Source of the DNA: a virus
Taxonomy: Duplodnaviria > Caudoviricetes
Reading direction: 5' to 3' (one strand)
Length of the DNA stretch: 53,425 nucleotides
IMG/VR virus record: IMGVR_UViG_3300031972_002039
Location: 1 to 53,425 of that record
Shown: one piece after another, positions 22,705-22,797 of the stretch
Layout: every line of letters begins with the position of its first letter
Position numbering within the stretch: position 1 is the first letter of the stretch
Position numbers and translations under genes: made by a program
The notes under the pieces: generated by a model
What the model was told of the DNA's origin: nothing
Database searches by the model: none
What the model saw: the letters and a program-made list of their open reading frames with translations, nothing else

Positions 22705-22797
22705 TTAAACAAAAATAGCCCTGTAGAGGTGTAAAAACCTTACAGAGCTATAAAATCCAAATACAAATACTACCAATATTTTACTTATCTACATCAT
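22705..22797 (-). CDS. putative leader peptide MM*ISKILVVFVFGFYSSVRFLHLYRAIFV
   Basis: ATG ATG TAG ATA...TAA (31 codons) spanning the terminator hairpin. Confidence 0.55.
22707..22750 (-). terminator. intrinsic terminator/attenuator inside the leader ORF
   Basis: TAGCTCTGTA-AGGT-TTTTAC-ACCT-C-TACAGGGCTA-TTTTTGTTT. Confidence 0.8.

Follow-up and report, generated by a model that had tools for sequence, protein, structure and literature searches.

The window, a whole contig of 53,425 bp with a G+C content of 38.6%, carries myovirus-type baseplate genes, and the stretch studied here occurs unchanged in four DNA sequencing runs of one seawater study, with no RNA run listed for it. The standard code (table 11) leaves the long ORFs of the contig intact. 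A Shine-Dalgarno sequence is present at none of the 62 listed gene starts, and the 62 listed ORFs end in TAA (45), TGA (11) or TAG (6). The six ordinary genes with a TAG stop end at 7094-7096, 12371-12373, 13431-13433, 15942-15944, 26029-26031 and 37810-37812, and read-through by the phage tRNA described below would lengthen them by 1 to 77 residues. The seawater source and the missing Shine-Dalgarno sequences make a marine bacterium of the Bacteroidota the probable host.

The stretch under study lies in a minus-strand block of RNA-related genes. The block opens with a run of tRNA-like elements, an array at 25800-25200, followed by a TROVE/Ro60-like gene (25193-23691; PF05731, E = 1e-22) and a gene for a left-handed β-helix protein (23613-22927). 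Behind these come, on the same strand, a tRNA(CUA) gene, a stretch with a short ‘leader’ frame, an ORFan, a PTH2-like (peptidyl-tRNA-hydrolase-like) gene and two further ORFs. The tRNA-like array, upstream of the Ro60-like gene, contains a repeated motif (GGUAG...GAGUUACUUCG), a weak tRNA match (25679-25607, 23 bits) and a partial tRNA match that lacks the acceptor stem (25465-25413, 33.7 bits), and is closed by a terminator at 25211-25182. The array looks like the Y-RNA (YrlA)-type partners of Ro protein, and a search of Rfam returned no Y-RNA match for it.

The tRNA gene, identified by ARAGORN at 22884-22813 (minus strand), has the anticodon CUA of an amber suppressor and matches the Rfam tRNA family over its full length with 67.3 bits. 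It does not encode its CCA end, as CAA follows the discriminator A. Just beyond the block, on the plus strand and near this gene that encodes no CCA, lies a gene for a CCA-adding enzyme that carries a fused HD domain at its N terminus (19304-20920). The tRNA is most similar to other phage CUA tRNAs (72-79%). When isolated phages were searched at the DNA level, the sole match was a tRNA of Pectobacterium phage CBB, and exact DNA patterns taken from the tRNA gene were unmatched in viral contigs. Between positions 22300 and 23000, the tRNA is the only credible Rfam match at E values of up to 10, and there is therefore no ribozyme or known cis-element behind it.

The leader frame and its hairpin

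The preliminary description of this DNA had reported a frame with TAG at codon 3 that covers a hairpin and its U tract, and a gap of 16 nt from the stop of this frame to the next ATG. Both are indeed present on the minus strand. The frame (22797..22705) begins 15 nt past the tRNA with ATG ATG TAG, proceeds through 27 sense codons, and comprises 30 codons plus TAA, reading MM*ISKILVVFVFGFYSSVRFLHLYRAIFV* under table 11. The hairpin (22751-22715, minus strand) is a stem of 15 pairs, interrupted by a single bulged C and capped by a 6-nt loop, with folding energies of -17.3 to -18.6 kcal/mol, and is directly followed by the T tract TTTTTGTTT (22715-22707), in which eight of nine letters are T. The TAA of the frame (22707-22705) closes the T tract, and the next ATG, at 22688, follows after the 16 nt.

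The 122-nt stretch with the hairpin folds better than 198 of 200 shuffled versions (z = -2.77). Of the 11 sites that the terminator finder gives for the whole contig, this one is the most stable. A simple terminator scan had overlooked it, presumably owing to the bulge. A stable, G+C-containing stem-loop with a U tract directly behind it is the form of an intrinsic terminator, and we therefore regard the site as a putative Rho-independent terminator, at which transcription would end. Three similar terminator-like sites lie behind the preceding transcription units on the minus strand, at 27358-27331, 25211-25182 and 23669-23642.

The length of the leader frame is within chance. When the same 84 nt were shuffled 20,000 times, a frame of at least 27 sense codons remained open in 9.3% of cases, and at least one stop-free frame runs across hairpin and T tract at all six strong terminators examined in the contig.

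An early in-frame stop in the PTH2-like gene

The PTH2-like gene (22380-22039, minus strand) has 113 codons and begins with ATG AAG TAG ATA. A table 11 call starts at Met24 and yields only 90 aa. Several findings place the real start upstream of Met24. The phrog_1866 family matches with E = 5e-12, and its position 3 onward aligns from the TAG codon (residue 22 of the longer frame). Full-length homologues (109-118 aa) span 93-100% of the 113-codon frame. No ATG, GTG or TTG occurs in the frame between the TAG and Met24. In an AlphaFold model with a mean pLDDT of 93.1, residues 9-15 form a core β-strand, which the 90-aa product would lack.

The model shows the Pth2 fold for this protein. The ten best structure matches in the PDB are all archaeal Pth2 or human Bit1 chains, with TM scores of 0.68 to 0.81. 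The fold is shared with the solved Pth2 structures (PDB codes 3erj, 1xty and 1wn2, and 1q7s for human Bit1) at TM 0.70-0.81; the sequence identity to these, however, is only 13-23%, and the protein of the window lies below the Pfam threshold, with no Pfam match at E values of 0.01 or 0.001. A sequence search against the PDB likewise gave chance matches only. Many of the 61 database homologues carry PF01981, which was recognised in 16 of 30 aligned homologues with a best E value of 6e-7, and an EPDIG-EIT (D-x-G...T) stretch is invariant or nearly so among homologues. Activity as a hydrolase is predicted.

Homologues are also found in Lak phages and in phages of Tenacibaculum, Xanthomonas and Stenotrophomonas. 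In 206 mycobacteriophage records (Bixzunavirus and relatives), the homologue is annotated as peptidyl tRNA hydrolase and lies inside tRNA arrays. For one of these phages, HyRo, the annotated hydrolase gene begins 21 nt ahead of the match, and the 3.3-kb stretch around it is without an annotated suppressor tRNA.

Profile-guided scans of IMG/VR and of metagenomes provided 80 loci each, which were reduced to 139 distinct genes by removing identical cores. We counted a gate wherever an in-frame stop lies within the first 11 codons, with an ATG before it and no ATG after it. Such a stop, which in the window is the TAG at 22374-22372 (codon 3, minus strand), is conserved in 107 of the 139 distinct homologues, as TAG in 102 and as TAA in 5. 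It is codon 3 in 60 of the 107 and ranges from codon 2 to codon 11 overall. The letter after the stop is a purine in 104 of the 107; 65 continue with Ile and 28 with Val. A purine 3′ of a stop codon favours suppression in Escherichia coli. In the gene core, in-frame stops are confined to 5 among 13,324 codons, and TAG, which makes up 102 of the 107 gate stops, is rare where long ORFs of the same loci end in the ordinary way (119 of 1,110 stops).

The stop also agrees with the anticodon that the locus's suppressor tRNA carries. TAG is paired with the anticodon cta in 75 loci and TAA with tta in 4, compared with two cases of TAG with tta and none of TAA with cta (Fisher p = 9e-6). A further 26 loci, of which many are short, have no suppressor tRNA in the sequence taken. 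The suppressor tRNAs in gate loci are nearly always on the same strand, and often lie 13-40 nt upstream or just downstream. In the window, the matching tRNA(CUA) is located 432 nt upstream of the PTH2-like gene, again on the same strand. The early stop is absent from 32 of the 139 homologues, and 23 of these 32 still have a tRNA(CUA) in the locus.

From this comparison of sequences we infer that codon 3 of the PTH2-like gene, a TAG, is a conserved amber sensor, which the tRNA(CUA) would read. The part of the preliminary description that survives is thus the sensing of UAG read-through near this tRNA: the conservation of the stop in 107 of 139 homologues and its match with the anticodon place it at the translation of the PTH2-like gene, and not at transcription control by a leader frame over a terminator.

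In the arrangement proposed here, the tRNA and the PTH2-like gene would normally share one transcription unit, and ribosomes starting at the ATG would meet UAG in the A site at once. If release factor 1 acted at the UAG, translation would end after two residues; if the phage tRNA(CUA) inserted a residue instead, the full Pth2-fold protein would be made, including its first core β-strand. The amount of the hydrolase-like protein would then depend on how much charged suppressor tRNA there is relative to release factor. The enzyme could clear peptidyl-tRNA that has dropped off, or it could trim the charged form of the suppressor as a feedback. The gate would thereby be a sensor that couples suppressor activity to an enzyme with predicted activity on charged or peptidyl-tRNA.

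The nature of the inserted residue was also considered. Among the database proteins P0003-P0027 there are some that read MKQI or MRQI, and insertion of Gln, deduced from this Q, was a candidate that we rejected. The Q stems from gene callers that use code 15, as P0009, which is the locus L081 with its TAG written as Q, illustrates, and it is therefore no evidence for Gln. The tRNA(CUA) of the window begins with G1, and 17 of 18 tRNA-Gln of the same loci begin with T. Standard-code callers, on the other hand, cut genes of the family to 83-101 aa, and P0001 and P0002 to 90 aa. For annotation, this means that the gene of the window is shortened to 90 aa by the one kind of caller and given a Q for its TAG by the other.

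One additional in-frame TAG is found within the PTH2-like core in each of five loci, L011 (4001-4339; HALR*FV), L023, L049, L056 and L077, and in some large phages with such a core TAG, wider use of TAG for an amino acid may be the case. To gauge recoding in the related loci, we tried the gain in coding coverage with TAG read as sense; it was dropped as too noisy, the standard-code window itself gaining 4.5 points.

The gene for release factor 2, prfB, has an early in-frame UGA that is passed by a +1 frameshift and senses its own product. The PTH2-like gene would resemble it as a gene of the translation apparatus that is gated by an early in-frame stop and whose output reports on the decoding of that stop. 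The two differ in that plain read-through by a separately encoded tRNA is proposed here. By analogy, the gate is nearest in logic to the in-frame stop of prfB, and in kind it is a phage suppressor-tRNA recoding confined to one codon of a single gene, in a genome with the standard code.

Recoding by phage suppressor tRNAs, with TAG read as Gln in ‘code 15’, is described in two reports (bioRxiv 10.1101/2021.08.26.457843; PMC9523058). Like the code-15 phages of those reports, the phage of the window has its own tRNA(CUA) and a gene with TAG in frame, its host using the standard code; in contrast to them, one gene and one position are concerned here, the long ORFs are intact, TAG ends 6 of the 62 listed ORFs, and the gate stop keeps to codons 2-11 and is not scattered. 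The word ‘hydrolase’ is absent from the preprint (bioRxiv 10.1101/2021.08.26.457843). A parallel in gene content is the Xanthomonas phage XacN1, which is a standard-code jumbo phage with orphan CUA tRNAs and a peptidyl-tRNA hydrolase gene, and for which read-through of annotated stops gave no target (PMC5852040). The target proposed here differs in lying at the start of the hydrolase-like gene, and not at annotated stops.

No paper whose main text was searched brings a suppressor tRNA of a phage together with a Pth2-like gene and a stop early in its frame, and the amber gate of the PTH2-like gene is apparently undescribed. Many standard-code phages carry a stop-reading tRNA of unexplained purpose. 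The third codon of a Pth2-fold gene is a proposed target for such a tRNA, and the gate is retained in over a hundred diverged phage loci.

Origin and possible roles of the leader stretch

The start of the leader frame resembles that of the PTH2-like gene. The segment ATGATGTAGATAAGTA (22797-22782, minus strand), which begins 15 nt after the tRNA and which we call the ghost start, is the first copy of a 16-nt direct repeat whose second copy lies at 22380-22365. A repeat search found the two copies identical at 14 of 16 positions, with a spacing of 417 nt. The ghost start reads ATG ATG TAG ATA and thus mirrors ATG AAG TAG ATA, the start of the PTH2-like gene at 22380. On both strands of the 53 kb, the pattern ATG NNN TAG ATA occurs three times, namely at 22797, at 22380 and at one unrelated position inside the gene for the CCA-adding enzyme. 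Unlike the length of the frame, this motif stands out from chance. In the closest relatives compared (L091, L001, L002, L084 and L003; 50-59% protein identity), ATG A-- TAG AT- comes 13-22 nt behind tRNA(CTA), and this is the start of the PTH2-like gene itself.

The sequence between terminator and PTH2-like gene is occupied by the ORFan (22688..22377, minus strand), the TGA of which overlaps the ATG of the next gene. Under the standard code it encodes 72 aa from an ATG at 22595; its length would be 103 aa from 22688 if a TAG at codon 17 were read through. A homologue search returned nothing but the ORFan itself, and it has neither a PHROG or Pfam match nor a relative in viral contigs. A pair of 20-nt inverted repeats (22460-22479 and 22631-22650), complementary at 17 of 20 positions, bounds 191 bp inside the ORFan segment, and none of 100 shuffles gave two matches. 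The left arm of this pair contains the in-frame TAG of the ORFan. A copy of the 3′ arm of the hairpin, identical at 14 of 16 positions, lies at 22503-22518. Together with the inverted-repeat region, it may represent a small mobile or structured element; the ORFan segment from 22440 to 22670 folds no better than its shuffles (z = -0.83).

A second case shows something similar. In locus L033 (3596-3870), an 85-codon ORF with the start ATG AGC TAG ATA (MS*I) lies 13 nt after tRNA(CTA), with a tRNA-Cys next, and the PTH2-like gene, which has its own early TAG (ATG TAG), is found 399 nt farther on. A gate start would here head other sequence. The 85-codon ORF has no PHROG match.

The start repeat, the position and motif of the gene start in the closest relatives, the ORFan without homologues, the inverted repeats and the L033 parallel are the reasons why we propose that the ‘leader’ is a ghost start, left by insertion or recombination of a terminator-plus-ORFan segment behind the first codons of the gene. 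For an insertion, an imperfect repeat of 16 nt is thin evidence, and the relatives compared do not exceed 60% protein identity. Single-protein scans of viral contigs, from which records very close to the window may be missing, gave no near relatives with the PTH2-like, β-helix and ORFan proteins, and the contig of P0002 (81% identity, 129.7 kb) was absent from the metagenome scan.

We consider it moderately probable that 22705-22797 combines an ordinary terminator with a ghost start, and that the true sensor lies at the PTH2-like gene. The hairpin would end, or at least dampen, transcription behind the tRNA(CUA), as one of four sites that punctuate the block. A segment of ~417 nt, comprising the rest of the leader, the hairpin, the ORFan and the inverted repeats, would have come between the tRNA and the PTH2-like gene, leaving the start motif at both ends. 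The frame that runs from the ghost start across the hairpin would be an incidental overlap of two unrelated things. A gene start stranded by insertion can thus mimic a neat leader-over-terminator arrangement, which calls for caution.

The hairpin might instead be an RNA-processing or stabilising element, for example the 3′ stem of a tRNA precursor or a 5′ mRNA stem, or it might be part of a mobile segment. At none of the four hairpins is an obvious promoter seen before the next gene, which begins within 20-50 nt, and this suggests a long processed transcript, and the copy of the 3′ arm at 22503-22518 (14/16) and the inverted repeats lie in the same segment. However, a stem with an 8-of-9 T tract is a textbook intrinsic terminator, and nothing known was matched in Rfam, which makes this explanation an unlikely one.

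The preliminary description had viewed the stretch as an attenuator. According to this model, read-through of the UAG would let a ribosome trail the polymerase and block the hairpin, and the ORFan, the PTH2-like gene and later genes would be transcribed; a ribosome released at the UAG, 38 nt ahead of the hairpin, would leave the hairpin free to form. At the Escherichia coli pyrBI and pyrE attenuators, ribosomes translating a leader that runs through an intrinsic terminator prevent termination there. These leaders are conserved, and the coupling relies on UTP-sensitive pausing. The window has in common with them a short frame through hairpin and U tract, spanning both exactly and with its stop right behind, and a single hairpin with no antiterminator. 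The A-rich region upstream of the leader also resembles the real gene starts of this phage, which lacks Shine-Dalgarno sequences. In addition, the 16 nt from the TAA to the next ATG leave no room for a promoter, and the downstream genes therefore need read-through of the terminator. We found no convincing promoter between hairpin and PTH2-like gene. For the PTH2-like gene, which is apparently intact, a regulating device would make sense.

In contrast to pyrBI and pyrE, however, the leader is not conserved, its frame is within chance (open in 9.3% of shuffles and at 6/6 terminators), and a stop codon would have to serve as the signal, a role for which we know of no precedent in an attenuator. 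The leader motif was unmatched in viral contigs, and neither leader nor ORFan was found elsewhere. The preliminary description had named conservation in related phages as a check of its model; among 113 distinct suppressor tRNAs of the related loci, a terminator-like hairpin lies within 150 nt downstream of only one, that of locus L057. There, hairpin and T tract behind the suppressor tRNA are spanned by a frame that contains three TAGs, as the model would have it, but the hairpin arms look like what is left of a long stem that belongs, in locus L058, to a larger tRNA-like element. Timing is a further obstacle, in that ~10 codons would have to be initiated and translated while the polymerase covers ~90 nt, which requires a putative pause. 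Finally, descent from the start of the PTH2-like gene accounts for the TAG at codon 3. The resemblance to pyrBI-type attenuation is one of form only, and we regard control of transcription by this leader as quite improbable.

As a variant of this model, the leader could derive from the duplicated gate by co-option. The ghost start would then belong to a two-tier sensor, acting on transcription of the ORFan and PTH2-like operon and on translation at codon 3 of the PTH2-like gene, of the phage’s own suppressor tRNA. This, too, we judge to be quite doubtful; if true, it would be the first case of a stop codon being read by a transcription attenuator.

We think it very unlikely that the frame is an amber-gated gene for a real hydrophobic peptide of 30 residues (ISKILVVFVFGFY...), in which a portable gate start would head a new short gene with the terminator inside its coding sequence: the 85-codon MS*I ORF of L033 shows that a gate start can head other coding sequence and the predicted product is strongly hydrophobic, but this hydrophobicity results from the richness in T of the hairpin and its tract, homologues were not found, the relatives being without a leader, and the length of the frame is within chance.

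The ordinary terminator with a ghost start thus remains our preferred reading of the stretch. Further elements were seen behind suppressor tRNAs of the related loci. In L058 (3709-3860), an element of ~150 nt with a T-arm-like core follows the suppressor tRNA; it has a long stem (GTAGTCGAC...GTCGACTAC) and then a T tract. In L057 (1311-1420), only the two stem arms are kept, in the form of the terminator-like hairpin crossed by the three-TAG frame. In L024 (3792-3830) and L035, what is apparently the stranded 3′ half of another tRNA (GGTGGGTTCGAGCCCCACATAGACC) lies directly behind the suppressor tRNA.
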